Assembly (NCBI GenBank): GCA_963727505.1
Contig: CAVSGP010000005.1
Coordinates: 32,001-96,000, forward strand
Origin: an uncultured Trueperaceae bacterium
GTDB taxonomy: Bacteria; Deinococcota; Deinococci; Deinococcales; Trueperaceae
Length of the DNA: 64,000 nucleotides
Direction: 5' to 3'
Shown one piece after another: positions 5,973 through 32,053 of the stretch (position 1 is its first letter; each line of letters opens with the position of its first letter). A program made the position numbers and the translations under genes. The notes beneath the pieces are model-generated. The model was not told the origin of the DNA. It searched no databases and saw only the letters and a program-made list of their open reading frames with translations.

Positions 5973-5986
5973 TGTGAACGTTCAGG
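5973..5986. promoter_or_regulatory. Putative LacI-type operator
   Basis: TGTGAACGTTCAGG, a CG-centred palindrome nearly identical to the site at 21631. Confidence 0.55.
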
Positions 5987-6188: not shown

Positions 6189-7190
6189 ATGAAGAAGTTC
6201 GTCGTTTCGGTAGCCGCGCTCGCGCTCGTCGCGGGGCTGTCGCTTGCCAGCGCACAGGACAAGGCGCCGGTGGGTCAGCAGTTCTGCAAGGGCGTGAACA
6301 TCACGTTCTTCCCCGGCGGCCCGGAGGGCGGCCCCTTCGCGTCGACCGTCTACCGCGGCGCCAAGGCAGCCCAGGACCTCACCGGAGCCAGCGTCGACTA
6401 CGTGTGGTCCAACTGGATCCCAAGCACCATGGTGGCGCAGTTCAAGAATGCCGTCGCCCGGCAGCCCGACGGCATCGCCGTGATGGGGCACCCCGGTGAC
6501 GCCGCGCTCGACCCCCTGATCCAGGACGCGGAGAAGGCGGGCATCATCGTCACCTCGCAGAACACCACGCTGCCCAAAGCCGAGCAGGAGTACAAGGCCC
6601 AGGGCTTCGGCTACGTCGGCCAGGAGCTTTACCAGTCGGGCGTCATGGTCGCCCAGGGGGCCGCCAAGATCGCCAACCTCCAGAAGGGCGACCGCGTCAT
6701 GGTGTGGGGCCTGCTGAGCCAGGGCACGCGTGGCCAGCGCACCGCTGGCGCGGTTGACACGCTCAAGAAGATGGGCATGCAGGTCGACTACATCGAGATC
6801 TCCGACGCCGTGAACAGTGACCCCTCGCAGGGCACTTCGGTGATCGGCGGCTACATCGCCGCCCACCCCGACGTGAAGTTGATCGTCGTCGACCACGGCG
6901 CCCTCACCGCCACTATCCCCACCTACCTGCAGGCGGCGGGCGTGAAGCCAGGCCAGATCACCATGGCGGGCTTCGACATGACCCCGGCCACCGTCAGCGG
7001 CATCAAGGAGGGCTACATCAGCGTCGTCCTCGACCAGCAGCCGTGGCTCCAGGGCTTCCTGCCGATCATGCAGATTTGCCTCACCAAGCAGTACGGCTTC
7101 TCCGGCCTGCACATCGACACCGGGGGCGCCCTCGTCACCAAGGACAACATCGACAAGATCGCGTCGCTCGTCGACCAGGGCATCCGCTAG
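6189..7190 (+). CDS. Monosaccharide ABC transporter substrate-binding protein (RbsB-like)
   Basis: Signal peptide ending ASAQ; PDGIAV, AGFD and LDQQPWLQG motifs. Confidence 0.9.
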   Translation: MKKFVVSVAALALVAGLSLASAQDKAPVGQQFCKGVNITFFPGGPEGGPFASTVYRGAKAAQDLTGASVDYVWSNWIPSTMVAQFKNAVARQPDGIAVMGHPGDAALDPLIQDAEKAGIIVTSQNTTLPKAEQEYKAQGFGYVGQELYQSGVMVAQGAAKIANLQKGDRVMVWGLLSQGTRGQRTAGAVDTLKKMGMQVDYIEISDAVNSDPSQGTSVIGGYIAAHPDVKLIVVDHGALTATIPTYLQAAGVKPGQITMAGFDMTPATVSGIKEGYISVVLDQQPWLQGFLPIMQICLTKQYGFSGLHIDTGGALVTKDNIDKIASLVDQGIR

Positions 7191-7221: not shown

Positions 7222-8001
7222 ATGACGGAAACGGCCACCATGAACGCCTCTGAGCTCCTGAAGCTCAGAGGCGTTCACAAATCCTTCGGACGCGTCAACG
7301 TCCTGCGCGGCATCGACTTCGACGTCGGCAGCAACGAGATCGTGGGGCTGGTCGGCGACAACGGCGCGGGCAAGTCGACGCTGATCAAGATCATCACGGG
7401 CGTCCACCGGCCCAGCAGCGGGGAGATCTTCTACAAGGGCGAGCGCATCACCATCCACTCCGTCAGGCGCTCGCGCGAGCTCGGCATCGAGACCGTCTAC
7501 CAGGAGCGCGCCCTGGGCGACCAGCAGACCCTGTGGCGCAACATGTTCGTGGGCCGCGAGATCGCCAACTGGGCGGGCTTCATCGACGTCAAGAAGGAGA
7601 AGCGGGAGACCGAGCGTTTGTTGCGCGACCACATGGGCTTCACCTCCAAGGCCATCGACACCGACTCGACGGTGATGTTCCTCTCCGGCGGAGAGAAGCA
7701 GGGCATCGCCATCGGCCGTGCGTTGCACTTCAACGCCGACCTCATCATCCTCGACGAGCCCACGATGGGCCTGTCGCTGTCCGAGACCCAGAAGGTCCTG
7801 GCCTTCGTGGGCGACATCAAGAGCCAGGGCAAGTCCGCCATCGTCATCAGTCACAATATGTTGCAGGTCTACCCGGTCGTCGATCGCTTCGTGGTCCTCG
7901 ACCGCGGCCAGATCGCCGCGGAATTCCCCAAGTCCGAGGTGACGCAGGAGGAGTTGACCGAGCGCATGGTCCGGCTCGCTCGCACGGGGAAGCTCACATG
8001 A
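7222..8001 (+). CDS. Sugar ABC transporter ATP-binding protein
   Basis: GDNGAGKS, LSGGEKQ, ILDEPT and ISH motifs. Confidence 0.93.
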   Translation: MTETATMNASELLKLRGVHKSFGRVNVLRGIDFDVGSNEIVGLVGDNGAGKSTLIKIITGVHRPSSGEIFYKGERITIHSVRRSRELGIETVYQERALGDQQTLWRNMFVGREIANWAGFIDVKKEKRETERLLRDHMGFTSKAIDTDSTVMFLSGGEKQGIAIGRALHFNADLIILDEPTMGLSLSETQKVLAFVGDIKSQGKSAIVISHNMLQVYPVVDRFVVLDRGQIAAEFPKSEVTQEELTERMVRLARTGKLT

Positions 8002-8022: not shown

Positions 8023-9030
8023 ATGGCTGACGCGCCCGAACCGTCTGTCGACGCGGCCGACACGAAGCCGGCTCGGCCGCGCTTCCGCATCCGTTCGACG
8101 CTCGAGACCGGCATCTTCATCGTGTTCATCCTGGTCTGGGCGATCTTCCTGATCGGCAACCCGCGGGTCTTCACAGGGCCCCATATCTACTATTCGCTGA
8201 TGTCGACGGTCCCCTTCATCGGCATCCTGGCGCTATCGGTCACCCTCGTGGTCATCCTTGGCGAGATGGACCTGTCCTTCCCGTCGGTGCTGGGCATCAG
8301 CTCCTGGGTGTTCGCAACCACCTTCGCGGCCACCCACAACCTGCTCATATCGTGCATCGCGGGGCTCGCCGCCGGCATCGCCTGCGGCTGGGTGAACGCC
8401 ATCCTGGTGGTGAACATCGGCATCCCTTCCCTGGTGGCCACCATCGGCACCATGTTCCTGTTCCGCGGCCTCACCAACGTAGTCGCGGCGGGCAACGGCA
8501 TCGCCCTGTCCGCGGCACGCGGCCACTTCCTCTACCAGGTCGCGGTCGGGCGGCTGTTCGGCGTCATCCCTGCGCAGGCGATCTGGATGCTGGGGCTGGG
8601 GGTGGTGTTCTGGTTGCTGCTCAACCGGCACCGCTTCGGCGGGCATCTGCTGTTCGTCGGCGACAACCCCGAGAGCTCGCGCATGATGGGCATCAACGTC
8701 AACCGCGTGAAGTCCATCGCCTTCATCCAGGTGGGCTTCTTCGCCGCGCTGGTGGGGATCCTCTCCACCCTCGAAGTGACGTACTTCTGGCCCAACCAGG
8801 GCACCGGATACCTGCTGACGGCGCTGGCCGCGGTGTTCGTGGGTGGCACCTCCGTCTTCGGCGGCATGGGCACCATCCTCGGGACCTTCCTCGGCGCGCT
8901 GATCATCGGCTCGCTGGAGGCCGGCATCGTGGCCATCGGTCTCACCGGCTTCTGGACGCAGCTCATCTACGGCGGCATCATCACCATCTCGGTGTCGATC
9001 TACGCCTTGCTGATGCGACGGCCCCGATAG
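8023..9030 (+). CDS. Sugar ABC transporter permease (RbsC-like)
   Basis: GEMDLS, GDNPESSRMMGI and AAVFVGGTSVFGG motifs. Confidence 0.92.
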   Translation: MADAPEPSVDAADTKPARPRFRIRSTLETGIFIVFILVWAIFLIGNPRVFTGPHIYYSLMSTVPFIGILALSVTLVVILGEMDLSFPSVLGISSWVFATTFAATHNLLISCIAGLAAGIACGWVNAILVVNIGIPSLVATIGTMFLFRGLTNVVAAGNGIALSAARGHFLYQVAVGRLFGVIPAQAIWMLGLGVVFWLLLNRHRFGGHLLFVGDNPESSRMMGINVNRVKSIAFIQVGFFAALVGILSTLEVTYFWPNQGTGYLLTALAAVFVGGTSVFGGMGTILGTFLGALIIGSLEAGIVAIGLTGFWTQLIYGGIITISVSIYALLMRRPR

Positions 9031-9104: not shown

Positions 9105-10163
9105 ATGAGGGCCGCTCGCCTCTACGGCGCCCGTGACGTGCGGGTCGATGACGTCCCCGAGCCGGCGGCGCCGGGGCCCGGCGAGGTGGTGGTGGAGGTG
9201 GGCTCGGTGGGGGTGTGCGGCTCCGACATCCATACCTACCTCGACGGGCGCATCGGCGACACGCCGGTGCCGGAACCTCTCGTCCTCGGCCATGAGTTCA
9301 TGGGCACGGTGATCGCTGCCAGCGAGGACGCCCGCGACGGCGGCCACCGGCCGCTGGCGCTTGGCACCCGGGTGGCGGTGGACCCCAACATCCCCGACAT
9401 CAACCACGAGCAGTACGAGCTCGGCAACCCCAACCTGGCGGTGAAGGCCTTCCTCGGGCTCTACCCGACCGACGGCGGGCTGCAGGAGCGCATCCGGGTG
9501 CCCGCGCGCATCTGCTTCCCGGTGCCGGATGCGCTGTCGGGCGACGCTGCGGCACTGCTCGAGCCCCTCGGTGTGGCGCTCCACAGCGTCGACCTCGCGC
9601 ATCTCGACCTGGGGGACGCGGTCGCGGTGCTGGGGTGCGGGCCCATCGGTCTGCTCATCCAGCGGCTGGCGCGGCTCTCCGGCGCACGGCAGGTGCTCGG
9701 CTTCGACCGCTTCCCCTGGCGCGTGGCGAAGGCGCGCGAGTGGGGCGCCAGCGAAGCGCACCTCATCGAGGACCCCAGGGATGCGATCGCCGTAGTGGAG
9801 GGGGCGACCGGCGGCCGGGGGGTGGACGTGGCGATCGAAGCCGCCTGGGCGGACGAGAGCGTGGCGGTGGCGGCCGAGGTCACGCGTCTGGGAGGGCGCC
9901 TGGTGCTGGCCGGCATCCCCGGCGACGACCGCCTCGCCCTCAAGCACTCCACCGCACGACGCAAGGGGCTGACGCTGCGCCTCGTCCGCCGCATGAAGCA
10001 TGCCTACCCGCGGGCGCTGGCGCTGGCCGCGTCGGGAGCGGTGCCGCTGGACGAGCTGGTGTCGCACCGCTACCCGCTGCAACAGGCGGCCGAGGCCTTC
10101 GCCGCCAACGCCCGCTACGACGAGGGCGTGTGCAAGGTGATGGTGGAGGTTGCGGCCAGCTGA
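9105..10163 (+). CDS. Zinc-binding polyol (sorbitol/iditol-type) dehydrogenase
   Basis: GVCGSDIH, GHE, LLEPLG and GCGPIG motifs. Real start MRAARLYG lies inside the 8352..10163 ORF. Confidence 0.88.
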   Translation: MRAARLYGARDVRVDDVPEPAAPGPGEVVVEVGSVGVCGSDIHTYLDGRIGDTPVPEPLVLGHEFMGTVIAASEDARDGGHRPLALGTRVAVDPNIPDINHEQYELGNPNLAVKAFLGLYPTDGGLQERIRVPARICFPVPDALSGDAAALLEPLGVALHSVDLAHLDLGDAVAVLGCGPIGLLIQRLARLSGARQVLGFDRFPWRVAKAREWGASEAHLIEDPRDAIAVVEGATGGRGVDVAIEAAWADESVAVAAEVTRLGGRLVLAGIPGDDRLALKHSTARRKGLTLRLVRRMKHAYPRALALAASGAVPLDELVSHRYPLQQAAEAFAANARYDEGVCKVMVEVAAS

Positions 10164-10215: not shown

Positions 10216-11457
10216 TCACGAGTGGCGTCGGTCCTGCGGGCCCCGCCAGAGCGCCGCGTGCTCGTCGCGCTTCCACCCCGGTGCGTGGAGCGACAGGGGG
10301 TTGCGGGCCCAACCGGCATCGAGCCGCTGCTGGCATGCTTCCCAGCTCGGCCCTCCGCCCGACGCGGTCGGCGCCTCGACGCAGAAGGCGCCGACCGCCG
10401 CGGCGACGGTCAACGCCTCCTCGGGCAACAGTCCACGCAGGAGCGCGGCGATGAAGCCCGCGCAGGTCGCGTCCCCGGCCCCGACCGTGTTGACGACCTC
10501 GGTCCTCAGGCTCGGGCTCCACAGCTCGCGATCGGCCCACGCGTCCACCTCGCGTGGTGTGGCGGACCCCATCGTGTGGAGCGCGTCGGTCATCGCGGTG
10601 CGAAGGTAGACGCCCTCCGACCCCATCTTGAAGAGCACCATCCTGGCGCCCATAGCGAGGAGCTCCCCGGCCAGTCGCGAGACGCGAGCGGCCTGCGCGC
10701 TTCGCCCGTCTGCGCCGGGCGCCGTCGGTTCTTCCTCGCGGGGCGTGTCGCGCAGCAGCACCACCGTCTCGTCGAAACTCGGCATGAACAGGTCTGTGTA
10801 GGGGAGGCTGCGCTCCAGGATCGCGCGCCAGTCGACCTGCCCGGAGGGCGATGCCGGGTCCGGCATCGCCATGTCGAGCGATACCGCCACGCCGCGCTCC
10901 CGCACGGCGCGCAGGAGCGAGGCTAGGGGCCGGCCTCCGTCCGCGTAGAGATGGGGCACCAGGGGCGGGTAGCCGAAGTGGAAGAGGCGGGCGCCCATGA
11001 CGAGGTCGAGATCGACGGCGTCGTTGTCGAACGTGGCGTAGGCGCCGGGCTCGTGCAGGAACATGCGTTCTCCACCGGGGGGTGTCAGTACCATCGTGTA
11101 CGACGTGGATGCGCCAGCCACCGTGGCGATGCCGCTCGTGTCGTCCGCGCCGCCGCGGACCAGAGCGTCGCGCAATGCGTCGCCCAACGCGTCATCCCCG
11201 ACCGTTCCCAGCAGCCGGGTGGGGACGCCCAGCCGTTGCAGCGCCAGGCCGGTGTTCGAGACGGCGCCCCCCGTGGCGAGCCGCGTGCCGCGGACCTCGA
11301 CCAGCGCTCCCGGCTCGAGCGACAGCCGCTCTCCCGCGATGCTGCACACGAGATCCAGGCAGACGTTTCCGGCGACCACCACATCGACGAGGCCGGTTCC
11401 GGCCGTGCGACCGCCGGCGTGCCCGCGTGCCGAGGACGGTCTCACGGTCGGCGCCAC
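10216..11457 (-). CDS. PfkB-family carbohydrate kinase
   Basis: GGAVSNTG, VGDDALG and NTVGAGDATCAG motifs. Confidence 0.9.
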   Translation of the reverse strand: MAPTVRPSSARGHAGGRTAGTGLVDVVVAGNVCLDLVCSIAGERLSLEPGALVEVRGTRLATGGAVSNTGLALQRLGVPTRLLGTVGDDALGDALRDALVRGGADDTSGIATVAGASTSYTMVLTPPGGERMFLHEPGAYATFDNDAVDLDLVMGARLFHFGYPPLVPHLYADGGRPLASLLRAVRERGVAVSLDMAMPDPASPSGQVDWRAILERSLPYTDLFMPSFDETVVLLRDTPREEEPTAPGADGRSAQAARVSRLAGELLAMGARMVLFKMGSEGVYLRTAMTDALHTMGSATPREVDAWADRELWSPSLRTEVVNTVGAGDATCAGFIAALLRGLLPEEALTVAAAVGAFCVEAPTASGGGPSWEACQQRLDAGWARNPLSLHAPGWKRDEHAALWRGPQDRRHS

Positions 11458-11485
11458 GCCCCGAAGTCGCGGCTCGCCCGCACCC

Positions 11486-12310
11486 TCACGCCTTCACGTG
11501 CACGCGCAAGAGCCGGATCTTCTCGCGTGCCACTCGCTTGAGCGCTTCTCTCGCAACCGGGAGCACCTCGTAGTGCACCGTTGCCTCCGGCGCCGCCTGG
11601 CGCCAGGCCTCCACCAGAGCGCGGAACAGGGCAGCTCCGATGTTCACCTTGACGACGCCGAGCTCGGTCGCCCGCGCGAGGTCGTCGGCCGGGATGCCCG
11701 ACCCGCCGTGCAACACCAGCGGCCCGCGAACGGCGTGAGCGATCGCCTCGAGCCGGTCCAGGTCGAGCTTGCTCGGCTGCCCGTGGCGGGAGCCGACCGA
11801 GCAGGCCACCATGTCGGCTCCGGTCTCGCGCATGAGGGTGGCGGCCACCTCGGGCTCGGTCAGATGGACGCCGCTCTCGCCCTCGCCGCCACCGAAGCCA
11901 CCGGCCGCGGTCTCCATGGAGGCGCCCGCCGCGTGCGCGACGGTCGCGATGGTCCTCGAAGCGGCGATGTTCTCGTCCAGGGGGAGTTCGTCGCCGTCGA
12001 ACATCACCGAGGAGTAGCCGGCCCGCAGGCATGCCACGGCCCGGTCCAGGCCGTCGCCGTGGTCCAGGTGCAGCATGACGGGGACGCTGGCCTCGTCGGC
12101 CAGTGCCTGCACCATGGCGGCGAACACCCGGGGCGTTGCCTGCTCCAGGTCGCCTGGGTAGGTCTGCAGGATGATGGGCGCGCGTTCTTCCTCGGCCGCC
12201 TCGATGCAGGCGCGTCCCATCTCCAGATTGGAAACGTTGAAGGCCGGCAGGGCGTAGTGGCCCGCTAGGGCCGCCTCGATCAGCGAACGACCGTCGGACA
12301 CGAAGGGCAT
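11486..12310 (-). CDS. Class II ketose-phosphate aldolase (FbaA/GatY family, divergent)
   Basis: PAFN, HLDHG, SSVMFDG, GSRHG, VLHGGSG and KVNIG motifs. Confidence 0.88.
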   Translation of the reverse strand: MPFVSDGRSLIEAALAGHYALPAFNVSNLEMGRACIEAAEEERAPIILQTYPGDLEQATPRVFAAMVQALADEASVPVMLHLDHGDGLDRAVACLRAGYSSVMFDGDELPLDENIAASRTIATVAHAAGASMETAAGGFGGGEGESGVHLTEPEVAATLMRETGADMVACSVGSRHGQPSKLDLDRLEAIAHAVRGPLVLHGGSGIPADDLARATELGVVKVNIGAALFRALVEAWRQAAPEATVHYEVLPVAREALKRVAREKIRLLRVHVKA

Positions 12311-12383
12311 GGGATCGACCTCCAGGGTGCGAGGCAGGGTGAGGGTCCCCACACCGGGTGCATTGCGAAACGTGCTTCGCCCG

Positions 12384-13463
12384 TCATCTCGAGGGCCCGA
12401 CCACCGGAACGGCGCCCAGCGCTGCGATGGCCTCGGGTGAATGGCCCCGTGCCAGAAGGGGTTCGACGACGTCGCGTTGGAGATCGGGCAGGTAGCACGC
12501 GATCACATCGCCTTTCCCCTCGGGCTCGAGCCGAACGTGCTCCAGACCGGCGGGCAGGATGCATGACTCAGCACTTCCCAACGGCTCGGACTTCCCTTCG
12601 TAGCGCAATGCGACGGGGTCACCGAGGTTGGTCAGGACGGTGCAGCGGCGCGGTCCAGCATCGACTACGTGCTCGCGCTCGAGCCTCCAGCGTTCGAGCG
12701 CGAAGTGCGGGCCGGCGCAACCCATCGTGCGCCGGTTCGTGCCGTCCTCCAACGCCAGGCCCGGGTTGGGGCGCGGGTAGAAGTCCCGGCGGAGCTCGTC
12801 GAGCGTCTCGGCGATGTTGGCGCGCCACGCTGGTTCTCCGACATCCCGACCGTAGAGGTCGGTGGGCATGACGCTCTGACCCAGGTCGGAGGTCTGCTGC
12901 ACCTCGAAGATCAGCGTCTCCGGGCCGAAGGCGTGAAGCACCCCTCCGGGGACGTAGACGGTGTCTCCGGAACGGATGGGGTAGCGATACATGAGGCGGT
13001 CGTAGTCCTGCTCGAGGAACCCCGCCGCGAGCTCTTCGTCGCTCTGTCCCGGCCGGACACCCGCCAGGATGGTCGCCCCCTCCGCCGCCCAAAGGATGTG
13101 CCAGGCCTCGGTCTTGCCGTTCGGCTCGCCATGCTTGCGCCGGGCGGTGGCGTCGTCGGCGTGAAGGTGCACGGGCAACGGGCGGCTGGCGTCGAGCAGC
13201 TTCGCGAGCAGCGGGAAGTGCGGCCCATGCCACGACCGGCCGACGAGGGCCTCGGGATGCTCTTGGACCAGCGTGCGGAGGCTGGAGCCAGCGTACGCGC
13301 CGTTGCGTACCGTTGCCATGGCATCGCGGTGGTCGCTCACCTCCCAGCTCTCCGCCACGTCCCCAGGCGGCAGGCCCTGCTTCCCGAGGCGATCGGCGAT
13401 CAAGCGTTGGCCGAAAGCGTACGTTCGGACGTGGAAGGTGAGCTTGAGTGGGTAGAGGTCCAT
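12384..13463 (-). CDS. Type I mannose-6-phosphate isomerase-like cupin (divergent)
   Basis: AESWEVS, FPLLAKLLDA, GKTEAW, VPGGVLHA and EVQQTSD motifs. Confidence 0.85.
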   Translation of the reverse strand: MDLYPLKLTFHVRTYAFGQRLIADRLGKQGLPPGDVAESWEVSDHRDAMATVRNGAYAGSSLRTLVQEHPEALVGRSWHGPHFPLLAKLLDASRPLPVHLHADDATARRKHGEPNGKTEAWHILWAAEGATILAGVRPGQSDEELAAGFLEQDYDRLMYRYPIRSGDTVYVPGGVLHAFGPETLIFEVQQTSDLGQSVMPTDLYGRDVGEPAWRANIAETLDELRRDFYPRPNPGLALEDGTNRRTMGCAGPHFALERWRLEREHVVDAGPRRCTVLTNLGDPVALRYEGKSEPLGSAESCILPAGLEHVRLEPEGKGDVIACYLPDLQRDVVEPLLARGHSPEAIAALGAVPVVGPSR

Positions 13464-13528
13464 ACATGCCCCTGACTTGGTCGCCATCGCAGACGAGATC
13501 ATCGTACGTCCGTCGCTGGAGTGCCTCC

Positions 13529-14449
13529 TCAACCTTTGACGGCCCCGAACGTCAGGCCCCGGACCACGTAGCGCTGTGCCAGCAAGGCTGCGACCACCGG
13601 CGGCAGGATCGCCACCAACGTCCGCACGCTGATGACGTTGAACTGGATTCCTTGCACGCCTGTGCCCGATCCGATGAGGAGCGGTAGGGTCTGGCTCGTG
13701 GGGCCCGTGAGGATGAGGGCGAACAGGAACTCGTTCCAACTGAACGCGAAGCAGATGAGCCCGGCGGCCACCAACCCGGCTGCGGCGAGCGGCATGGCCA
13801 CCAGCCAGAACGTCTGCATCCGGTTGGCTCCGTCCACCAGTGCGGCCTCCTCGAGCTCGAAGGGGAGCTCACGGAAGATCGACCGCATGATCAGCACCAC
13901 GAAGGGCATGTTGAAGGTGGTGTGGGCGATGACCACCGACGTGAGGTTGTTGAGGAGCGTTCGGCTGCCCGTTGCCATGCAGGCCAGCTGCAGGGGTTGA
14001 GGGAGATGGAGGCCCCACAGGTCGAGCGGCTGGCACCCCGAGCGCATCATCAGTAGGAACGGCACGATGACCACGGCCGGGGGAAGGAAGCGTTGCGACA
14101 GGAACCAGATGGACAGGTTCAGGTTGTCCGGGATGTAGTAGCGGAAGCGCGCCAGGGCGTAACCCGCGAGCGTCCCGAGTAGCAGCGCCAGCACGGTGCT
14201 GACGACCGCCACGATGAGGCTGTGGCTTGCGGCGGAGACGAGGCCACTCTGCCCCGACAGCTCCGATCGCCAGGTCGCCAGCGTGGGCTCGAACTGCACG
14301 AACGGGATGAACCAGGGCTTGTAGGTGTCCTGCAGGCGCATGATCGAGTTCCGTAGCGCCCACAGGAAGGGGAAGATCGACCACAGGGTGGCCACGAGCA
14401 GCAGGACGACGAACAGCGCGACCTGGAGGGGGGATCGACGGCGGATCAC
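13529..14449 (-). CDS. Carbohydrate ABC permease (MalG-like)
   Basis: EAA loop ELEEAALVDGA, FSWNEF and GLTFGAVKG motifs. Confidence 0.92.
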   Translation of the reverse strand: MIRRRSPLQVALFVVLLLVATLWSIFPFLWALRNSIMRLQDTYKPWFIPFVQFEPTLATWRSELSGQSGLVSAASHSLIVAVVSTVLALLLGTLAGYALARFRYYIPDNLNLSIWFLSQRFLPPAVVIVPFLLMMRSGCQPLDLWGLHLPQPLQLACMATGSRTLLNNLTSVVIAHTTFNMPFVVLIMRSIFRELPFELEEAALVDGANRMQTFWLVAMPLAAAGLVAAGLICFAFSWNEFLFALILTGPTSQTLPLLIGSGTGVQGIQFNVISVRTLVAILPPVVAALLAQRYVVRGLTFGAVKG

Positions 14450-14450
14450 A

Positions 14451-15386
14451 CTAGTCCTCCCCGAAGATGCTGATGCGCAACCCGCCCGCGAACAGCAGGA
14501 CGTTGACCACGATCAGCACCAGGATGAGCAGCAGGAAGCCGTACGAGGCGGCCGATCCGAGCGCGAACGAGTTGAACGCCACGCGCCACACCAGCATGGT
14601 GTAGGTCTGCGTGGCGATGCCGGGACCCCCCTTGGTGAACGCGAACGGGATATCGATGATCTTGAACGCCTCCACCGTGGTCAGGAGTAGGGCGAGGGCG
14701 ATCATGGGCTTGAGCAGCGGCAGCGTCACGAACCGGAAGACGTCCCAGCCGTTGTTGGTCTCGAGGCTGGCTGCCTCGTAGACCTCCTCGGGGATCCCCT
14801 GCATGCCGGCCAACAGCACGAGGAAGGAGAATGGCGTCCAGCGCCAGATCTCCAGCATCGTCACGGCCACGGCGGCGCCGGTAGGGTCGGAGCCCCAGTT
14901 GACGGCCAGCGAAGCGTTCGACCCTAGCAGGTGCAGCAGGCCCTGAACGGCACCGAGGAGGCCGTTGATCGGGCCGTTCTGAGCGAACAGGATGACCGCG
15001 AGATAGCCGATGCCCACCGGCGTGGCGAACAGCGGGATCATGAACAACATACGGAAGAGGTTGCGGCCTGCCAGACGCTGGCTCATGAGCATGGCAAGGC
15101 CGAGGCCGACAGCCAACGAGGCGGCGACCGTTACGACCACGAGGATGGCGGTGAAGCTCAGCGCGGTCCAGAACTGCGCGTCCTGGAAGGCGCCGGCGTA
15201 GTTGCTGAAGCCGATGAACCGCACCGGTTGCCCCAGGCGGGCCCGTTGGAAGCTCAGGATCAGCGCGTGGATGAGCGGGTACAGCGTGAAGGCCAGCGTC
15301 CACAACGCCGCCGGCAGGATGAACCAGGTGCGCGCGGTGCCGAGACTCACGCGGAGGCCGCGCTTCACCGTTGCACGTGCACTCAT
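14451..15386 (-). CDS. Carbohydrate ABC permease (MalF-like)
   Basis: WRWTPF, EVYEAASLE and TKGGPG motifs. ATG at 15386 follows AGGAG, downstream of two hairpins. Confidence 0.9.
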   Translation of the reverse strand: MSARATVKRGLRVSLGTARTWFILPAALWTLAFTLYPLIHALILSFQRARLGQPVRFIGFSNYAGAFQDAQFWTALSFTAILVVVTVAASLAVGLGLAMLMSQRLAGRNLFRMLFMIPLFATPVGIGYLAVILFAQNGPINGLLGAVQGLLHLLGSNASLAVNWGSDPTGAAVAVTMLEIWRWTPFSFLVLLAGMQGIPEEVYEAASLETNNGWDVFRFVTLPLLKPMIALALLLTTVEAFKIIDIPFAFTKGGPGIATQTYTMLVWRVAFNSFALGSAASYGFLLLILVLIVVNVLLFAGGLRISIFGED

Positions 15387-15414
15387 CGATCGACCGCTCC
15401 TGTACGCAAGAGGG

Positions 15415-15502
15415 GGGTTGGGCGCCGGCGGCGCCCAACCCTGGGAGTTTGCGTGCACCGTGTCATGTCGAGGCGCGTGAGCCGCTCCAGCGGCTCACGC
15501 GC
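15415..15502 (-). promoter_or_regulatory. Two strong stem-loops between the SBP and permease genes
   Basis: gggttgggcgcc/ggcgcccaaccc (15415-15441) and gcgcgtgagccgct/agcggctcacgcgc (15473-15502). Confidence 0.7.
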
Positions 15503-15512
15503 GGAGTCTCCG

Positions 15513-17195
15513 CTACTTCAACGATTCCTGGAAGACGTTGATCTGATCCTGACGGCCGATCTGATCGGTCGTGGTGTTCCAGCGCTTGGCGACCTGATCG
15601 AGGGCGGCCTGTGGGCTCATCTGGCCGGTGATGGCGGCCTGGATGTTCTGTTCGAGCGCGAGCGCGTAGTCGGGGGTTCCGGGGACACGCAGGTACTCGT
15701 AGGCCTTCTCGGTGAAGTTCTGGGCGTAGGCGTCGGAGATCTGCTTGATGTCGTCGGCGTTGAACCCGGCGCTCAGGTAGTTGTTGATGTTCGCGGAGCC
15801 GTTCGGCGGCAGGAAGTCCGTGTGCCGACCGAGGTCGATGCCGTCGAAGCCCCAGCGGGCGTTCCACAGGTGCATGGCCGGGCTGGAGAGGAAGGCGTAC
15901 AGAGCGTAGGTGGCGTCGGGGTGTTGTGAGAGCGAAGAGACCATGCCCGACCAGCTGGCGCCGGCCTCGTTCCCCACGTGGTTCGGTTGGCTCAGCGTGT
16001 CCCAGCTCTTGGTGGAGACGTTGTAGACCTCGGTGGAGCCCGGGACGGGCGCCACGCCCAGGTGGCCCTTCACCGGCGACTTGCCGTCCGGCGACTCCAC
16101 GATGGTGCCGGTGTCACCGAAGTTGATCTGGAAGACCGCCTGGCCCTCGGCGAACATGTTGAAGGAGGTGCCGAGGTCGATGGACGCGGGGTCCTGCGGG
16201 CCGCACTTGTAGAGGTCGACGAAGGTCTGCAGCCCCTTCACCGCCGCCGGATTGTTGATGAGGGGATCCATGGTCTTCGGATCGAACTGCAGGGTCTGGC
16301 TGTACCCCTGCGACGCTCCGCCAGGGACCACCCCGTACTGGGCCGCGACGGCCCGGTAGTACTCGAAGAACTGGCTCCCGATCTGAGCGGGCTCGACGAT
16401 GCCGTACAGCGGCTTGCCCGTGTTCAACGGGTCCTTGCCGTTGAAGTAGCACGACTCCTTCACGAGCTGGTCGAGCGTCGAGGGGACCACGAGGTCCTCA
16501 CCCGTCGCCTGTTTGTACGCTGCCTGGACGTCGGGGCTGTCGAGCACGTCCTTGCGGTAGTACAGCACGACGCCGTCGGAGTCCCAGGGGGCCGCGTACC
16601 AGGTGCTGCCCCAGCGGTAGAGCCGTTGCAGGCTGGGCTCGAGCACGCCGTCAAGACCCCACTGGGTGGGATCCTGGTTGGTGTTGTCGAACACGCCCGC
16701 GTACTTATCGGACTTCATGTAGTCGTTGAGAGGGACGATGAAGTTGCCGGAGACGAGGCTACCCATGAATGCCATCGGAACGACAAAGCCGTCGTAGGCT
16801 CCCGTTCCAGTGCGCACGTCGTTGAACATGACTGGGGCCAGGTCGTCGAACGGCTTCTGGACGACGTTGACCTTGGCGCCGGTGAGTGCCTCGAACGCCG
16901 GCACCCAGTTGATGATGCCGCCCGAGATGGCGCCCTTGTCGCCGGCCTGCAAGGTCATGATGTTCAGCGTGACGCCGGCGAAGGGCTTCGTGCCGCCGTT
17001 CTTCCAGGCGTCCGTGATCAGCGTGCCCAGCGTGCCGGGAGCGAAAGTGACGGTGTCACCGGGGTAGAGGCTCTTGACGACGAACGATCCGTCGGGCTGC
17101 TGCGTGACGTACTGGTCGCCTTGCGCGAACGCGACCGAAGCACAGAGCAAGAGCAGCGCTCCCAGGAGAATTCCGAGCCTACGATGTCCGACCAT
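15513..17195 (-). CDS. Carbohydrate ABC transporter solute-binding protein (CUT1, large)
   Basis: Signal peptide ending AFAQ; PWDSDGVVLYYRKD motif. ATG at 17195 follows GGAGG. Confidence 0.88.
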   Translation of the reverse strand: MVGHRRLGILLGALLLLCASVAFAQGDQYVTQQPDGSFVVKSLYPGDTVTFAPGTLGTLITDAWKNGGTKPFAGVTLNIMTLQAGDKGAISGGIINWVPAFEALTGAKVNVVQKPFDDLAPVMFNDVRTGTGAYDGFVVPMAFMGSLVSGNFIVPLNDYMKSDKYAGVFDNTNQDPTQWGLDGVLEPSLQRLYRWGSTWYAAPWDSDGVVLYYRKDVLDSPDVQAAYKQATGEDLVVPSTLDQLVKESCYFNGKDPLNTGKPLYGIVEPAQIGSQFFEYYRAVAAQYGVVPGGASQGYSQTLQFDPKTMDPLINNPAAVKGLQTFVDLYKCGPQDPASIDLGTSFNMFAEGQAVFQINFGDTGTIVESPDGKSPVKGHLGVAPVPGSTEVYNVSTKSWDTLSQPNHVGNEAGASWSGMVSSLSQHPDATYALYAFLSSPAMHLWNARWGFDGIDLGRHTDFLPPNGSANINNYLSAGFNADDIKQISDAYAQNFTEKAYEYLRVPGTPDYALALEQNIQAAITGQMSPQAALDQVAKRWNTTTDQIGRQDQINVFQESLK

Positions 17196-17344
17196 ACGAA
17201 TCAACCTCCGATCCATCCTGTCGGTCGACCACGCCTATCGTGGTCCGTGCACCTGTCCCCAGCTGCCCTCGACCGACATGTTCGCCTCGCTTGGTTCTCG
17301 CCATGAACGGACAGTCCGTCCGGAAGATCGGGTTGAGGATTTCA

Positions 17345-17358
17345 GGTTAACGTTCCCA
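17345..17358. promoter_or_regulatory. Putative LacI-type operator upstream of the CUT1 SBP gene
   Basis: GGTTAACGTTCCCA (reverse complement TGGGAACGTTAACC). Confidence 0.6.
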
Positions 17359-19052: not shown

Positions 19053-19703
19053 TCACTGCCCGTAGACGGTGGTGTAGCGCTCGTAGAGCGCGTCGATGTC
19101 GTCCTGCGCGATGAGTTCCGGTGTCCCCAGCTGTAGCGCGTGGTGCACGGTGCGCGCCACGTCCTCGCACATCACCGCGGCCTTGACGGCGGCCTTCGGG
19201 GTGGCGCCGACGGTGAACACGCCGTGGCTCTGCATCAGCGCGGCGGGAGAGCGGTGACCGCGCAGCAGGCGCACCACTTCGAGGCCGATCGCTTCGCCGC
19301 CGATGCGCTCGAAGCCGCCGCAGGGGATGGGACCACCGAACTCGTCGGCCATGGCCGTGAGCACGCAAGGGATCTCCCGGCCCAGAGCTGCGAAGGCCGT
19401 GGCATAGGAGCTGTGCGTGTGAACGATGCCCCCCACCTCGGGCATTGCCCGGTAGATGGCGGCATGGGTGGCGGTGTCCGAAGAGGGCTTGAGGTCGCCC
19501 TCGACCGACAGGTCGTCGAGATCGACGACGCACATGGAGGCGGGGTCGAGGTCCTCGAAGGCCACTCCACTCGGCTTGATCACCATGCGTCCGTCGCCTT
19601 CCAGGCGTCCCGAGATGTTGCCGCTGGTCCACGCGACGAGCCGCTCTGCCGGCAGCAGCGCATGGAGGTCCGACACCGTCTGGCGGAGCTCGTGCAACGT
19701 CAC
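19053..19703 (-). CDS. araD: L-ribulose-5-phosphate 4-epimerase
   Basis: [25 protein letters not shown] and C-terminal YGQ; lies between araB and araA. Confidence 0.93.
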
Positions 19704-21379
19704 GATCCCACCTCCTTCTCAGCCTCGGCCACGCTGCGCGCAAGATGGCGCAGCCGCTTCATCACGCCGCCCGGCTCATCGGATCCGGCGCGGCCGAAGG
19801 TGTCGTGCAGGAACAGGTAGTCGGCGTAGAGCTGGTCGTACACAGCGGTGTGCTCGGCCACGGGTGTGTAGGTGGTGGGCGCGAGCGACCCCATGTGCTC
19901 GGCCGCCTCGCGGATGTCGCGGTAGGCACCCGCCGCCACCGCGGCGTGCATGGCGCTGCCGAGTGCCGGCCCTTGCTCGCTGCCGATGACATGCATCTCG
20001 CGCCCCAGCACGTCGGCGTAGATCTGCATCATCAGCGGGTTCTTGGCCGGAAGGCCGCCGGCCGCCACCAGTCGCGTGACGGGTACGCCGCCGTTCTCCA
20101 GCGTTTCGATGATCAGCCGGGTGCCGTAGGCCGTGGCTTCAAGCAGCGCGCGGTAGATGTCGGGGGGGCGGGTCGCCAGCGTCATCCCCACGAGGAGGCC
20201 GCCCAGCTCGGCATCGACGAGGATGCTGCGGTTGCCGTTGAACCAGTCGAGTGCCAGAAGGCCGTGCTCGCCGGGATGCTTTGTGCGCGCCTCCCGCTCC
20301 AGCAGGGCATGGAGGTCGATGCCCTCGCGCACCGCGGCCTCGTGGTACTCCGGGGGCACGCCGTTCTCCAGGTACCACGCGAAGATATCGCCTACGCCGC
20401 TCTGCCCCAGCTCGTAGCCGTACATGCCCGGCACGATGCCCCCCTCGACCACGCCGGCCATGCCCTCGACTTCGTGCAATTCGTCCCCGACGAGCACGTG
20501 GCAGGTCGACGTGCCCATGATCATGACCATGGTGCCTGCCTCGACGTGACCGCTAGCCGGCAGCGTGACGTGGGCGTCCACGTTGGCCACGGCGACAGGC
20601 GTCCCGGGATGGAGGCCGGTCCAGCGGGCCGCCTCCTCCGTGAGTCCGCCGGCCTTGCCGCCCAGCGCAGCGAGCTCGCGCGACATCTTCCCGTCGACGA
20701 CATCCTCGAGCTCTGGGTGCAGAGCCGCGAAGTAGTCCCGGCTCGGGAAGCTAGCGTCCTGGTAGATGGCCTTGTAGCCGGCCGTGCAGGCGTTGCGGAT
20801 CTCGACGCCGGTCAGCTGCCAGACGACCCAGTCGGTGGCCTCGATGAGGCGGTCGGCCTGGCGGTAGATGTGCGGGGCTTGCTCGAGGATCTGCAGGGTC
20901 TTGCTGAAGAACCACTCACTGCTGATCTTGCCGCCATAGCGCATGAGCCACGGCTCGCCGCGCTCGCGGGCCACCCGATTGATGAGGTCGGCCTGGGGCT
21001 GTGCAGCGTGGTGCTTCCACAACTTGACCCAGGCGTGTGGTTCGCCGCGCAGCTCGGGCAGCCGGCACAGCGGCGTGCCGTCGGCCAGCGTTGGCAGCAT
21101 GGTGCAGGCGGTGAAGTCGATGGCGAGACCGAGGATGTCCTCCGGGTCGACCTCGGCCTGGCGGAGCACGGCCGGGACCGTCTCGCGGACCGCCTCGAGG
21201 TAGTCGTCGGGGTTCTGCAGCGCCCAGTCGGGCGGCAGCCTGGGCCCGCCCGGCAGGCGCTCGTCGATCACGCCGTCACCGTAGGGGTGGACGGCGGTTG
21301 CGACTTCGCTACCGTCGGAAACGCGCACCAACAGGGCGCGGGCCGACTCCGTACCGAAGTCGATGCCGATGGTGTACAT
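19700..21379 (-). CDS. araB: Ribulokinase
   Basis: [34 protein letters not shown] and LDWFNGNRS motifs. Confidence 0.95.
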
Positions 21380-21464
21380 GGATCCTCCCGCCCTTCCTAC
21401 CGATGCTTCGGCGGAGCGCGTCAACTCGGTCCGGGCCGGCGCATGTCGGGACGTCACGCCTTCT

Positions 21465-21478
21465 TGTTAACGCTCTCA
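21465..21478. promoter_or_regulatory. Putative LacI-type operator upstream of araB
   Basis: TGTTAACGCTCTCA. Confidence 0.7.
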
Positions 21479-21630: not shown

Positions 21631-21644
21631 TGTGAACGTTCTCA
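21631..21644. promoter_or_regulatory. Putative LacI-type autoregulatory operator
   Basis: TGTGAACGTTCTCA, overlapping a TAGGAT -10-like element upstream of the LacI gene. Confidence 0.7.
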
Positions 21645-21692: not shown

Positions 21693-22724
21693 ATGGGTTT
21701 GGCCGACAACCAGCGAAGGGCGACGCTTCACGATGTGGCAGAACTCGCCGGAGTGTCGCATCAAACGGTCTCACGGGTCGTCAACCGGCACCCGAGCGTG
21801 GCGGCGGCCACGCGGACGCGCGTGCTCGAGGCCATCCGCAAGCTCGACTACGCTCCCAATCGCGTCGCCCAGAGCCTGGCCACGCGTCGTTCCAAGACGG
21901 CGGGCATCATCGGCTACGGAACGACGCACTACGGTCCTTCGCAGATGGTCGCGCACATCGAAGCGACCCTCAAGATCAGGGGGTACGGGCTGGTCTACGC
22001 TGCGGTTCCCGACTTGAGCATCGAAGTGCTCCGGGAGCAGGTCGCCACGCTGCGGAACCAGCTCGTGGACGGGCTCGTGTTGATCACCCCCGTCGGGGGC
22101 GGTCACCTGGTGGAGACGAGCGACTTCATCGGGGTTCCTTACGTGATGATCGACGCCATGCTGGGCGAGCACGTTCCCTCGGTGGTGATCCACCAACACT
22201 ACGGCGCGCGGCTCGCCACGCGCCACCTCATCGAAAGCGGCCATCGTGCGATCGCGGAGATCAGCGGTCCCATGGAGTGGAGTGGCGCGAAGCAGCGCCA
22301 CGACGGATGGCTGTCGACGCTGTCCGACGCCGGGATCGAGCCGGGGGCCAGCGTCGAGGGGAACTGGACCGCAGAGAGCGGCTACGAAGCAGCCCGGCAC
22401 CTGCTCGAACGGGGCGCGCCGTTCACCGCCCTGTTCGCGGGCAACGACCAGATGGCGCTGGGAGCGATGCGCGCGCTGCGGGAAGCAGGGCGCAGGGTGC
22501 CGCGCGACGTCTCCGTGGTGGGGTTCGACGACGTGCCCGAGGCCGCCTACTACGAACCTCCGCTCACCACGATCCGACAGGATTTCCCGGCCCTGGGTCA
22601 GCAGGCGGTCGAGCTGCTGCTCGCCCGCATGGACGCTCCCGACGCGCCCGCCCATCAGCGCATCCTCTACCCGACCCTGATCGAGCGCGCCAGCGTCGCC
22701 AGCCCCAGCCTCGTCGCGTCCTGA
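21693..22724 (+). CDS. LacI-family transcriptional regulator (likely arabinose-regulon repressor)
   Basis: [34 protein letters not shown] hinge, SVVGFDD and LTTIRQ motifs; divergent from araB. Confidence 0.95.
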
Positions 22725-22813: not shown

Positions 22814-24343
22814 CTAGGCCAGTTCGCTCGGCAGCAACGCCTTCGGGAAGTTCTGGTACGCCACCAGCCGCGTGAACCGCTCGATGGCGCGCGCCCCGAC
22901 CGAGGTGGTTCGGCCGTCGGAGGTGGCCGGGTAGGGGCCGCCGTGGACCATCGCGCGGCACACCTCGACGCCGGTAGGGACCTGGTTCACGATCAGACGG
23001 CCGGCCTTGCGCTCGAGTGCCGCCACCAACGGCCGGTAGCGCTCCCACTCGTCGCCCTCGCCGTGCAGCGTGGCCGTGAGCTGCCCCTCCATGGCGCCGG
23101 CGAAGGCCAGCAGCTCGTCGTCGTTGCGGTAACGGACCAGCACCGTGGTGGGGCCGAACACCTCCTGGGTGAGGCGCGGGTCGTCGAGGACCGCCGCGAC
23201 GTCGGCTTCCCACACCGTGGCGCTGGCGGCGGTCAGCCCTCCCCCGCGGTGCCCCTCGGCCAGGCGCCGGGCGCCCGCGTCGGCCAGCCGTTGCAGGCCC
23301 GCGCCGAACGCATGCTGGATGCCCGGCGTCAACATGGCGTGCGCCTCGGCCGTGCGCGCTCCCTCCACCAGCCGCTCGCGCAGCGCGTCGCCGGCCTCGC
23401 CGGCCTCCAGCAGCACGATGCCGGGGTTGGTGCAGAACTGGCCGACGCCCAGCGTGAACGACGCCAGCAGCGCGTCCGCGATGGGGCCGGGGCGCCGGCG
23501 CGTCGCCAGCGGCAGCACGAACACCGGGTTGACGCTGCTCATCTCGGCGTACACCGGGATCGGTTCGGGCCGCTCGGCCGCCAGCCGCATCAGGGCCTGG
23601 CCGCCGCCGCGCGAGCCGGTGAACCCCACTGCGCGGACCAGCGGATGCCGCACCAGCGCCTGCCCTACGTCGTAGCCGTCGTCGAACAGGAGCGAGAAGA
23701 CGCCGTCGGGCGTGCCCTGCTCGTGGGCCGCGGCGCGGATGGCGCGCGCCACCAGCTCGGAGGTGCCGGGGTGGGCAGGGTGCGCCTTGACGAGCACGGG
23801 ACATCCGGCCGCCAGGGCGGAGGCCGTGTCGCCGCCGGCGACCGAGAACGCCAGCGGGAAGTTGCTGGCTCCGAACACCGCCACCGGTCCGAGGGGGCGC
23901 CGCAGGGAGCGCACGTCGGGCTTGGGCGCGGTCGCGCGTTTAGGGTCGCCGGAGTCGATGCGGATGTCGAGCCAGGCGCCCTCGTCGAGCAGCGTCGCGA
24001 AGAGCCGGAGCTGGTTGGCGGTGCGGCCCAGCTCACCGGTGAGGCGGGCCGTGCCCAGTGCGGTCTCGCGATCGGCGCGCTCGATGATGGGCTCGCCTCG
24101 AGCCTCCAGCTCGGCCGCGATGGCGCGCAGGAACGCCGCGCGCTCGGCCGGCGGGGTGGCGGCGTAGGCGGGGAAGGCGTGCTCGGCTGCGACGGCCGCG
24201 CGCTCCAGGTCGGCTGTTCGGGTCGGGTGGAAGGCGGGCTCGAGCCGCTCGCCCGTGCGGGCGTCGCTTGCGTGGAAGGTGCGCTCACCCGGTTCGGCGG
24301 TTGCGAGGCCGATCAGGGAGAGCCCCTTCATCGTCCCCGGCAT
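22814..24343 (-). CDS. 2-oxoglutarate semialdehyde dehydrogenase-like aldehyde dehydrogenase
   Basis: FGASNFPLAFSVAGGDTASA, GFTGS, EMSSVNP, GQFCTNPG and HGGPYPAT motifs. Confidence 0.9.
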   Translation of the reverse strand: MPGTMKGLSLIGLATAEPGERTFHASDARTGERLEPAFHPTRTADLERAAVAAEHAFPAYAATPPAERAAFLRAIAAELEARGEPIIERADRETALGTARLTGELGRTANQLRLFATLLDEGAWLDIRIDSGDPKRATAPKPDVRSLRRPLGPVAVFGASNFPLAFSVAGGDTASALAAGCPVLVKAHPAHPGTSELVARAIRAAAHEQGTPDGVFSLLFDDGYDVGQALVRHPLVRAVGFTGSRGGGQALMRLAAERPEPIPVYAEMSSVNPVFVLPLATRRRPGPIADALLASFTLGVGQFCTNPGIVLLEAGEAGDALRERLVEGARTAEAHAMLTPGIQHAFGAGLQRLADAGARRLAEGHRGGGLTAASATVWEADVAAVLDDPRLTQEVFGPTTVLVRYRNDDELLAFAGAMEGQLTATLHGEGDEWERYRPLVAALERKAGRLIVNQVPTGVEVCRAMVHGGPYPATSDGRTTSVGARAIERFTRLVAYQNFPKALLPSELA

Positions 24344-25296: not shown

Positions 25297-25513
25297 GCGC
25301 GGTCTCCTTTCGAGGCGGAGGCGAGACCCCTGCCTACAGGACGGGCGGTGTCCCGGTCCCGCTTAGCGCCTTCGGCGCCGGTCGGGGGCGGTCTCACAAC
25401 GGTAGACTATGGCCCGCGTCCGGGATGCATCAAGGCCGCGCGTCGAGCGCGCTTGCCGAGATCGTGCAATGCGAGGGGTGCGTCCGGGCGACGCGGGGAG
25501 CGGAGGCACGGAC

Positions 25514-30463: not shown

Positions 30464-30523
30464 GCCACACGCTCCTCCCCGTCGCCACAGGGCCCGGCAT
30501 TGGGGCCTCCGCCGCACACGGCA

Positions 30524-30560
30524 GTTCCAGTATATGGGACGACTGTCCGTATAGTTGAAA
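30524..30560. promoter_or_regulatory. Two imperfect palindromes, candidate IclR operators
   Basis: GTTCCAGTATATGGGAC (30524-30540) and TGTCCGTATAGTTGAAA (30544-30560) in the divergent promoter region. Confidence 0.5.
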
Positions 30561-30728
30561 ATCGGACCCCACATCGCGTAAGCTTGCAATGAGCTTGCAA
30601 GTGAGCTTCTGGGTTGCCGAGGACCGTCCTGCGTGACGTGTCCGAGGCGCAAAGCATGCGGCGCGAGGGGGCGTCGCGAGTGGGCCGACAGGGTCGGACC
30701 GCAATGGCTCTAGTGGAGGTGCCAGTCG

Positions 30729-32015: not shown

Positions 32016-32053
32016 GACGGAACGGGGACCAACGTGATTCCCTCCGAGTCTCA

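Follow-up and report, generated by a model that had tools for sequence, protein, structure and literature searches.

The window analysed here, a stretch of 64,000 nucleotides from an uncultured bacterium of the Trueperaceae (Deinococcota; contig CAVSGP010000005.1, positions 32,001 to 96,000), carries directly downstream of araBDA a six-gene cassette that encodes (i) a large solute-binding protein and two permeases of an ATP-binding cassette (ABC) importer, (ii) a cupin related to phosphomannose isomerase (PMI), (iii) a class II aldolase and (iv) a long sugar kinase of the PfkB family. There is an even chance that the cassette breaks down an imported, non-phosphorylated sugar by isomerisation, phosphorylation at C1 and cleavage to dihydroxyacetone phosphate (DHAP) and an uncharged aldehyde. 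In this scheme, a free aldose would be taken up by the large binding protein and the two permeases, energised by an ATPase encoded elsewhere, and would be converted to a ketose by the PMI-like cupin at a metal site of the 3His/1Glu type. The long PfkB kinase would then phosphorylate C1, beside the keto carbon. Cleavage of the ketose-1-phosphate, whose distal end is predicted to be neutral, into DHAP and the uncharged aldehyde would fall to the IolJ-related class II aldolase. A LacI-type operator would control the cassette. An earlier note on this DNA had described the genes as co-directional downstream of araBDA, and the six minus-strand genes, their Pfam families (Table 1) and their short gaps (54, 1, 65, 31 (or 73) and 28 bases from the binding protein to the kinase) agree with that description. 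The isomerase-kinase-aldolase reading of the same note has gained specialised paralogs, lost distal-phosphate residues and comparative-genomic linkage in its favour, with the reactions, the C1 position and the substrate still predicted from sequence.

All three enzymes stay below every NCBIfam equivalog cut-off: 73 bits with TIGR00218 for the PMI-like protein (manA; cut-off 116.2), at best 238.8 bits for the aldolase (cut-off 423; 195.6 vs 215.6 for the cbbA subfamily) and at best 85.5 bits, with the IolC N-domain, for the kinase (cut-off 300). Elsewhere, the source genome (3.26 Mb, 97% complete) encodes a canonical short type I PMI on C4, with the motifs QVHPDD, GKSEAWY and SDLTYRLFDYLRR, and a canonical fructose-bisphosphate aldolase (FBA) on C9, which is a second PF01116 gene of higher score (323 bits). 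Thus, the cassette copies are extra paralogs.

The closest solved relative of the PMI-like protein is the short Bacillus-type I PMI 1QWR (E 1.4e-30), with which it has in common the Pfam family, three of four metal-ligand positions and a 'QQxSD' motif. The Zn ligands of the Candida enzyme are Gln111, His113, Glu138 and His285 (PMC10069634, PMC3765361). In the PMI-like protein the metal-ligand His, Glu and His are kept and the Gln position is His, within P-V-H-L-H-A-D-D; thus, H-x-H stands where 1QWR-type enzymes have Q/K-x-H and where canonical PMIs have Q-x-H (Q-V-H in the C4 paralog and E. coli ManA). A further change follows the 'QQTSD' motif, where the 'xTYRxxDYxR' stretch is replaced throughout the PMI-like family by 'LGQxVMPxDLYG' with loss of both cationic residues; SDLGQSVMPTDL of the window protein aligns here with SDLTYRLFDYLR of its own C4 paralog and SDATYRVYDYDR of 1QWR. 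The motif deviations that the earlier note had described in both the PMI-like protein and the aldolase are upheld by alignment, and residues that bind the distal phosphate in the canonical relatives (presumably so for the isomerase) are absent from each.

A protein search with the PMI-like sequence found 1489 proteins at E <=0.001 among 8000 scored candidates. The best 120 that were listed are 60-97% identical to it, and P-V-H-L-H-x-D-D is present in 115 of them. Those that are named are called mannose-6-phosphate isomerase, in keeping with the warning of the earlier note that automatic annotation would hide the function. An ESM Atlas search returned only generic PMI and PfkB names. A genome scan yielded 323 relatives, and the carriers of the 80 loci retained from it are Trueperaceae, Rubrobacteraceae, Thermomicrobiales and other Chloroflexota, Leptolyngbya-type cyanobacteria and two Nitrososphaera metagenome-assembled genomes (MAGs); identity stays at 55-80% across Deinococcota, Actinomycetota, Chloroflexota, Cyanobacteria and Nitrososphaera. 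The H-x-H family is both widespread and highly conserved, and its name appears to be wrong. Another PMI candidate is present in all seven carrier genomes checked, being of type I in G000 (the source genome), G003 and G004 and a PF01050 domain in G001, G002, G005 and G006. The idea that the PMI-like protein is the sole PMI of Rubrobacteraceae and cyanobacteria was ruled out, as those genomes carry a gene with the PF01050 type II PMI domain. In both Nitrososphaera MAGs (L074:5139-7201 and L075:8256-10318), the PMI-like gene (56-57% identical) directly follows a gene of the SDR family, a two-gene unit that suggests transfer across domains.

Neighbours of the PMI-like genes were counted over 79 loci. 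The commonest is a fructokinase-like PfkB gene, which lies directly downstream in 41 of them at a median gap of 4 bases, mostly in Rubrobacteraceae; others are XylB-type FGGY kinases, ribokinase, and ABC and MFS sugar transporters. The kinases of the Chloroflexota loci are XylB-like FGGY proteins, accompanied in 12 loci by ribulose-phosphate 3-epimerase, and in an Oculatella locus the order is XylB, ribose-type ABC transporter, XylB-like kinase, PMI-like gene and ribokinase. Genes for free sugars thus surround the family, which fits an isomerase that acts ahead of phosphorylation. A role as stand-in for xylose isomerase was considered, as XylB is present and XylA of either NCBIfam type absent in all six carrier genomes examined (the source genome and five others). 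It was dropped because, in a set of 301 Deinococcota genomes, XylA accompanies the PMI-like gene in at least 12 of the 17 that carry it, so that the two genes are not complementary in their distribution within the phylum (the tally takes in G258, which is flagged as unpublished and on which no claim depends). The source genome has a xylulokinase above the NCBIfam cut-off among housekeeping genes (G000 C2:106577-107893, L116), and G219 and G247 of the same genus have XylA.

The aldolase is IolJ-like rather than FBA-like. Its metal-binding and catalytic residues are kept, with H95, D97, H98, E147, H190, H215, K235 and N237 invariant over nine aligned sequences. A search of solved structures matches it at similar levels to Bacillus FBAs, sulfofructose-1-phosphate aldolases, AgaY and YdjI. 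A protein search of the 301 Deinococcota genomes found 49 with an aldolase match at E <=1e-60, and 20 loci were fetched. Fourteen of these (50-58% identity) are iol clusters, with genes for PfkB, KduI/IolB, a thiamine-pyrophosphate enzyme, an IolE-type TIM-barrel protein, Gfo/Idh/MocA and aldehyde dehydrogenase; five (59-64% identity) have an FGGY kinase gene as neighbour, in many cases together with an SDR gene, and one has neither context. In a maximum-likelihood tree, the 14 iol-context aldolases form one group (99/97), the window aldolase and that of L003, a related Trueperaceae locus, form a pair (100/100), and these two groups together with the FGGY-context aldolases are jointly split from FBA, GatY and YdjI (100/99). 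The window aldolase therefore falls within the IolJ-like superclade, yet it has H-Y and G-A-A where the iol-context aldolases keep H-R and G-S-A, and it lies outside their group. It is the sole IolJ-like gene of the source genome. Orthologs of the iol-cluster IolC (74%) and IolA (73%) are found elsewhere in that genome; the IolC ortholog (C6:217538-218542, L158) converges on a separate operon for a binding protein and permease.

Two residue changes are specific to the aldolase's own subclade. Where the window protein has V-H-Y, FbaA, GatY and the FBA of the source genome have D-P-R and the iol-context homologs, all 14 of which keep the Arg, have x-H-R; the column of this Arg is Tyr in most members of the window subclade, and E. 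coli YdjI also lacks the Arg. In the SqiA paper, this Arg is described as a ligand of the 6-phosphate contributed by the partner protomer, replaced by Ala in sulfofructose-1-phosphate aldolase (PMC10665668). The second change is at a phosphate-binding Thr, which is Thr in FBA and GatY (N-x-D-T), Ser in iol-context homologs (N-x-G-S-A) and Ala in the window subclade (N-I-G-A-A). By contrast, the short loops, 'QTYP' and 'N-x-G-x-A' are common to the iol-context proteins and the window subclade and are missing from canonical FBA and GatY. Of the deviations of the aldolase from FBA, only the Arg-to-Tyr and Ser-to-Ala changes are thus peculiar to the subclade, whereas the short loops and N-I-G-x belong to the IolJ-like clade at large.

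The kinase contains 'VGAGDA', which matches the PfkB G-A-G-D motif. It belongs to a separate subfamily of long PfkB proteins, with 45-47% identity to members from Rubrobacteraceae and Anaerolineae against 24-28% to IolC, YdjH and RbsK. Homologs of the kinase were located in 26 loci. In seven Anaerolineae loci (L090, L092, L093, L096, L097, L099 and L101), a divergent GH38 alpha-mannosidase lies beside the long PfkB gene (45-49% identity) at a median distance of 72 bases, and a glycoside transporter of the MFS_2 family follows the kinase gene in four loci (L093, L097, L098 and L102). These neighbours are a weak pointer to mannose-derived substrates.

Neighbourhood analysis, which the earlier note had named as a check, links the isomerase, aldolase and kinase to one another and to the transporter in relatives. 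The six genes occur in identical order in L003/L088, at 73-92% identity, and also, split over two contigs, in another MAG (L001 and L087, the latter with the aldolase at the contig end). The flanks of the cassette are unrelated, and no extra gene is common to the five other contigs compared. In L009, a Trueperaceae MAG of 53% G+C, a DeoR regulator gene is grouped with genes for a large binding protein (37%), two permeases, an FGGY kinase and the aldolase (67%), and the group is convergent with a PMI-like gene (63%) that is accompanied by a Gfo/Idh/MocA gene. The clade of the window aldolase has a PfkB kinase as partner in two loci and, in related Trueperaceae, an FGGY kinase in six. This alternation beside one aldolase clade is non-orthologous displacement, a pattern expected if the phosphorylation step is what counts, whichever family supplies the kinase. 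Rubrobacteraceae loci L071, L078, L025, L011 and L051 have an aldolase of 50-51% identity near a PMI-like gene, and L071 has a long PfkB gene (45%) as well. Across the 301 Deinococcota genomes, the PMI-like gene is present in 9 of the 17 with an aldolase match of >=59% identity and in 8 of the 284 others, a comparison limited by the choice of the 59% threshold after the data had been seen and by the non-independence of related genomes. In L003, L009, L140 and G080 the PMI-like gene adjoins the aldolase or lies within a few kb of it, and the arrangements differ. The gene set of the cassette is more than a chance assembly. A literature search for this combination of genes found nothing. In L140 (10983-12919; G244), the PMI-like gene beside the FGGY-aldolase pair is a fragment of 214 aa next to a DDE transposase and is likely a pseudogene.

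Several findings weigh against the proposed pathway. Most PMI-like loci (71 of 79) have no such aldolase nearby, so that the family may supply ordinary distal kinases with ketoses, and its pairing with an aldolase in this cassette may be lineage-specific. The long PfkB family occurs mostly apart from the aldolase and the PMI-like gene: both are clearly present in at most 2 of the 26 loci with kinase homologs (L088, on the same contig as L003, among them), and L087 has the aldolase at its contig end. In the aldolase tree, the window/L003 pair joins six FGGY-context aldolases (the five fetched and that of L009) at weak support (83/81). The distal-phosphate argument for the isomerase leans on Arg304 and Lys310 of Candida PMI, which are presumably ligands of the 6-phosphate; the literature search did not confirm this, and nothing was found on the role of Arg304. 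A further difficulty is the aldolase itself: the Thr replaced by Ala is described as the 1-phosphate ligand in the SqiA paper (PMC10665668), so the site for the DHAP phosphate is changed (Ala for Ser/Thr) in a way that the model does not explain.

The cassette is not a new principle, as the Iol, Ydj and sulfo-Embden-Meyerhof-Parnas (sulfo-EMP2) systems show the same logic with related parts. The earlier note overstated its case in presenting the logic, built from different protein families, as possibly new: IolB/IolC/IolJ have the same arrangement, and YdjH/YdjI and SqiA are further precedents. The reactions of IolB, IolC and IolJ, taken here to be those of the B. subtilis pathway, are the formation of a ketose by a cupin isomerase, phosphorylation beside the keto group by a PfkB kinase and release of DHAP by a PF01116 aldolase. 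The window has the same trio, with aldolases of one superclade; it differs in that its isomerase is of the PMI type (PF20511) and not KduI/IolB (PF04962), its kinase is a separate long PfkB protein, its aldolase has Tyr for Arg and its unit includes an ABC transporter. In RefSeq, E. coli YdjH and YdjI are listed as L-glycero-L-galacto-octuluronate kinase and the aldolase of the corresponding 1-phosphate. As predicted for the cassette, this pair of a PfkB kinase and a PF01116 aldolase handles a ketose-1-phosphate and not a bisphosphate; the D-P-R Arg is absent from both aldolases, and Zn-dependent dehydrogenases and an aldo-keto reductase are neighbours at both loci. Identity is, however, only 33% for the aldolase and 24% for the kinase, the ydj cluster has no such isomerase and YdjI lies outside the IolJ-like superclade. 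In sulfo-EMP2 (SqvD, SqiK and SqiA), an isomerase, a 1-kinase and a PF01116 aldolase without the distal-phosphate Arg act in series (PMC9594981; PMC10665668), whereas the families of SqvD (PF02952), SqiK (PF00365), sulfoquinovosidase and the sulfolactaldehyde enzymes are absent among the window proteins scanned. The L-fucose and L-rhamnose pathways (FucIKA and RhaABD) likewise lead from a free aldose through a ketose and a ketose-1-phosphate to DHAP and an aldehyde, and the FGGY kinases that accompany the aldolase clade in relatives are reminiscent of FucK and RhaB. All three protein families of the window are different, the aldolase being PF01116 and those of the fucose and rhamnose pathways PF00596. 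The predicted logic of the cassette is like that of the fucose and rhamnose pathways and still more like that of IolB/C/J, YdjH/I and sulfo-EMP2.

Other explanations of the cassette were weighed against the same data. It is unlikely that the cassette is an Iol-type route for a sugar acid, with the PMI-like protein in place of IolB, the long PfkB in place of IolC and the aldolase as IolJ, which would isomerise, phosphorylate and cleave an aldehydo-acid, such as 5-deoxyglucuronate or another uronate, to DHAP and an acid semialdehyde. Such a route would account for the nearest aldolase relatives (50-58%) in 14 Deinococcota loci beside the Pfam families of IolB/C/D/E/G/A, for the shared superclade, for the IolC N-domain as top NCBIfam match of the kinase and for a genome with a single IolJ-like gene and orthologs of IolC and IolA elsewhere. 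However, no iol gene is among the window proteins scanned, and a tblastn search of the source genome at E 1e-10 gave no match to IolB or IolE; for IolD and IolG the matches had only 25-32% identity. The Arg kept by every iol-context aldolase is Tyr in the window clade, the PMI-like family has no cationic residues at the distal site and the kinase has low identity to IolC. Similarly improbable is an operon of two modules, in which the transporter and PMI-like protein pass a ketose to an unlinked kinase (XylB or fructokinase), and the aldolase and long PfkB serve another substrate, such as a ketose formed from an imported polyol by the adjacent Zn-dehydrogenase. At most loci a PMI-like gene has a fructokinase-like PfkB or an XylB-like kinase as partner but no aldolase, which speaks for this division, as do Zn-dependent alcohol dehydrogenase homologs near the long PfkB homologs in three of the 26 loci, the dehydrogenase gene of the window, which ends 52 bases from the kinase stop, and the SDR or Gfo/Idh/MocA genes alongside FGGY-aldolase pairs. 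It is hard to reconcile with an order and spacing that hold from binding protein through kinase in at least two genomes, the flanks of which are unrelated, or with the closeness of PMI-like gene and aldolase in varied arrangements at L003, L009, L140 and G080.

Ordinary hexose metabolism, with a true mannose-6-phosphate isomerase, a fructose- or tagatose-bisphosphate aldolase and a fructokinase acting on imported mannose or fructose, is very unlikely. The Pfam families (PMI, F_bP_aldolase and PfkB), the names given to family members and the GH38 alpha-mannosidases beside long PfkB homologs would suit it; the scores of all three proteins below every equivalog cut-off, the canonical PMI and FBA encoded elsewhere, the loss of distal-phosphate residues from both the PMI-like protein and the aldolase and an operon with no 6-phosphofructokinase or hexokinase-type gene would not. 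A sulfoquinovose route of the sulfo-EMP kind, by isomerase, sulfofructose kinase and class II sulfofructose-1-phosphate aldolase, is extremely unlikely. Its three-step logic is identical, the sulfonate could stand in for the phosphate of mannose-6-phosphate, and SqiA is a PF01116 protein with structures among the best PDB matches of the aldolase (8q57, E 8.3e-44). Yet the window aldolase is nearer to IolJ than to SqiA, and no GH31 sulfoquinovosidase, sulfolactaldehyde reductase/dehydrogenase or exporter is among the window genes scanned. The known sulfo-EMP2 isomerase is described as FucI-type and the kinase as PfkA-type (PMC9594981), and a 2026 review makes no mention of a cupin/PMI-type isomerase.

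Returning to cleavage of a ketose-1-phosphate with a neutral distal end, a first guess is a substrate of manno configuration at C2/C3 (D-mannose, D-lyxose, 6-deoxy-D-mannose or similar), because of the PMI ancestry of the isomerase and the alpha-mannosidase neighbours of the kinase family. A broader proposal is advanced tentatively, with odds somewhat below even: the H-x-H PMI-like proteins may be unrecognised aldose-ketose isomerases of free sugars, joined in Trueperaceae to an IolJ-derived aldolase without the anion-binding Arg and to a PfkB or FGGY kinase. Together these would form a natural ketose-1-phosphate route not yet described. Its course might be from mannose to fructose-1-phosphate or from lyxose to xylulose-1-phosphate, with DHAP and glyceraldehyde or glycolaldehyde as products. 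Two hints, a P450 gene that adjoins the cassette in L003 and the Rieske genes of L028 and L061, had raised an idea based on 1,5-anhydrofructose or anhydromannitol; it was set aside, as the literature search gave nothing usable.

If the broader proposal is true, a large conserved family now named mannose-6-phosphate isomerase needs re-annotation as free-sugar isomerase in bacteria of soil, crust and sediment, in cyanobacteria and in ammonia-oxidising archaea. IolJ-type aldolases would have radiated beyond inositol catabolism, which a single Arg/Tyr position could mark, and the cassette would be a natural route of ketose-1-phosphate cleavage from parts other than the fucose and rhamnose enzymes. 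To our knowledge, ketose-1-phosphate routes through xylulose-1-phosphate and ribulose-1-phosphate have so far been engineered synthetically.

The importer encoded by the cassette is of the MalFG/UgpAE kind, presumably CUT1, with an SBP_bac_1 binding protein, two BPD_transp_1 permeases and no ATPase gene. The binding protein is unusually large, has an N-terminus like a signal peptide (an alternative start is at 17195) and matched no NCBIfam family. Its closest solved relative is a trehalose/maltose-binding protein at only E 1.5e-9, which gives no informative ligand. Orthologs in L003 and L001 are 85-88% identical, and relatives of 35-37% adjoin PMI-like genes in L009 and L028. The nearest NCBIfam models of permease 1 are UgpA, GlcT and MalF, all far under the cut-off, and those of permease 2 are GlcU, UgpE and MalG, also below the cut-off.

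The pattern GARCGTTMAC was derived post hoc from three sites of the window (17346, 21466 and 21632). It has five matches in the window, where 0.34 are expected, and none of 100 shuffles reaches five. Two sites (21466-21475 and 21632-21641) lie between araB and the gene for a LacI-family regulator, another (5974-5983) is just upstream of a convergent operon for an ABC transporter and a Zn-dependent dehydrogenase, and the fifth (58379-58388) is inside an open reading frame (ORF) region. As the pattern was made from three of the sites, only 5974 is independent among those in promoters. L003, which has the cassette and no ara genes, contains an exact match, GAGCGTTCAC, 150-200 bases upstream of the binding-protein gene; the best match in L001 has one mismatch, as chance would give. 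The occurrence of the pattern in four promoter regions (convergent operon, cassette, araB and LacI gene) suggests one regulon, and a LacI-type operator common to the cassette, araBDA and the convergent operon is plausible.

Table 1. Coordinates of the cassette, its putative operator and the flanking genes in the window.
Feature	Position	Strand	Match or remark
Solute-binding protein, 567 aa	15513-17216	minus	PF01547, 76.5 bits
ABC permease 1, MalF/UgpA-like	14451-15458	minus	PF00528
ABC permease 2, MalG/UgpE-like	13529-14449	minus	PF00528
PMI-like cupin, 359 aa	12384-13463	minus	PF20511, 29.2 bits (cut-off 22)
Class II aldolase, IolJ-related	11486-12352; likely start 12310 (MPFV...) from homolog alignments	minus	PF01116, 257.9 bits
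Long PfkB sugar kinase, up to 413 aa	10216-11457; start 11457, 11445 or 11382, uncertain	minus	PF00294, 110.4 bits
Operator-like 10-mer GAACGTTAAC	17346-17355	minus	Inside the 292-base gap from araA to the binding-protein gene
araA	17509-19014	minus, directly upstream of cassette	NCBIfam L-arabinose isomerase, 779.3 (cut-off 622)
araD	19053-19703	minus, upstream of cassette	NCBIfam L-ribulose-5-phosphate 4-epimerase subfamily, 323.7 (cut-off 251)
araB	19700-21457	minus, upstream of cassette	NCBIfam ribulokinase, 742.8 (cut-off 583.25)
LacI-family regulator, divergent from araB	21693-22724	plus	PF00356 and PF13377; NF007075, 325.9 bits (cut-off 340)
Ribose-type binding protein, convergent operon	6189-7190	plus	PF13407
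ATPase, convergent operon	7222-8001	plus	ORF list
Permease, convergent operon	8023-9030	plus	ORF list
Zn-dependent alcohol/polyol dehydrogenase, convergent operon	9105-10163	plus	PF08240, PF00107

The window has a G+C content of about 64-76%. Terminator-like sites are not enriched (two found, 3.3 expected). The LacI and ara genes are adjoined at 24343-26461 by a gene of the DHDPS family (minus strand) and one of the proline-racemase family (plus strand), of the type seen in hydroxyproline catabolism. A second sugar-type cluster at 28914-37869, similar to clusters for amino-sugar acids, starts with a creatininase-family gene and an IclR regulator on the minus strand and has on the plus strand genes for a binding protein, two permeases, a SelA-like pyridoxal-phosphate enzyme, an amidohydrolase, a RidA/YjgF protein and a PfkB kinase. 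Farther along, at 47299-50104, a likely cluster for a type IV pilus or pseudopilins consists of genes that encode DUF4900 and a prepilin-type N-terminal methylation motif.

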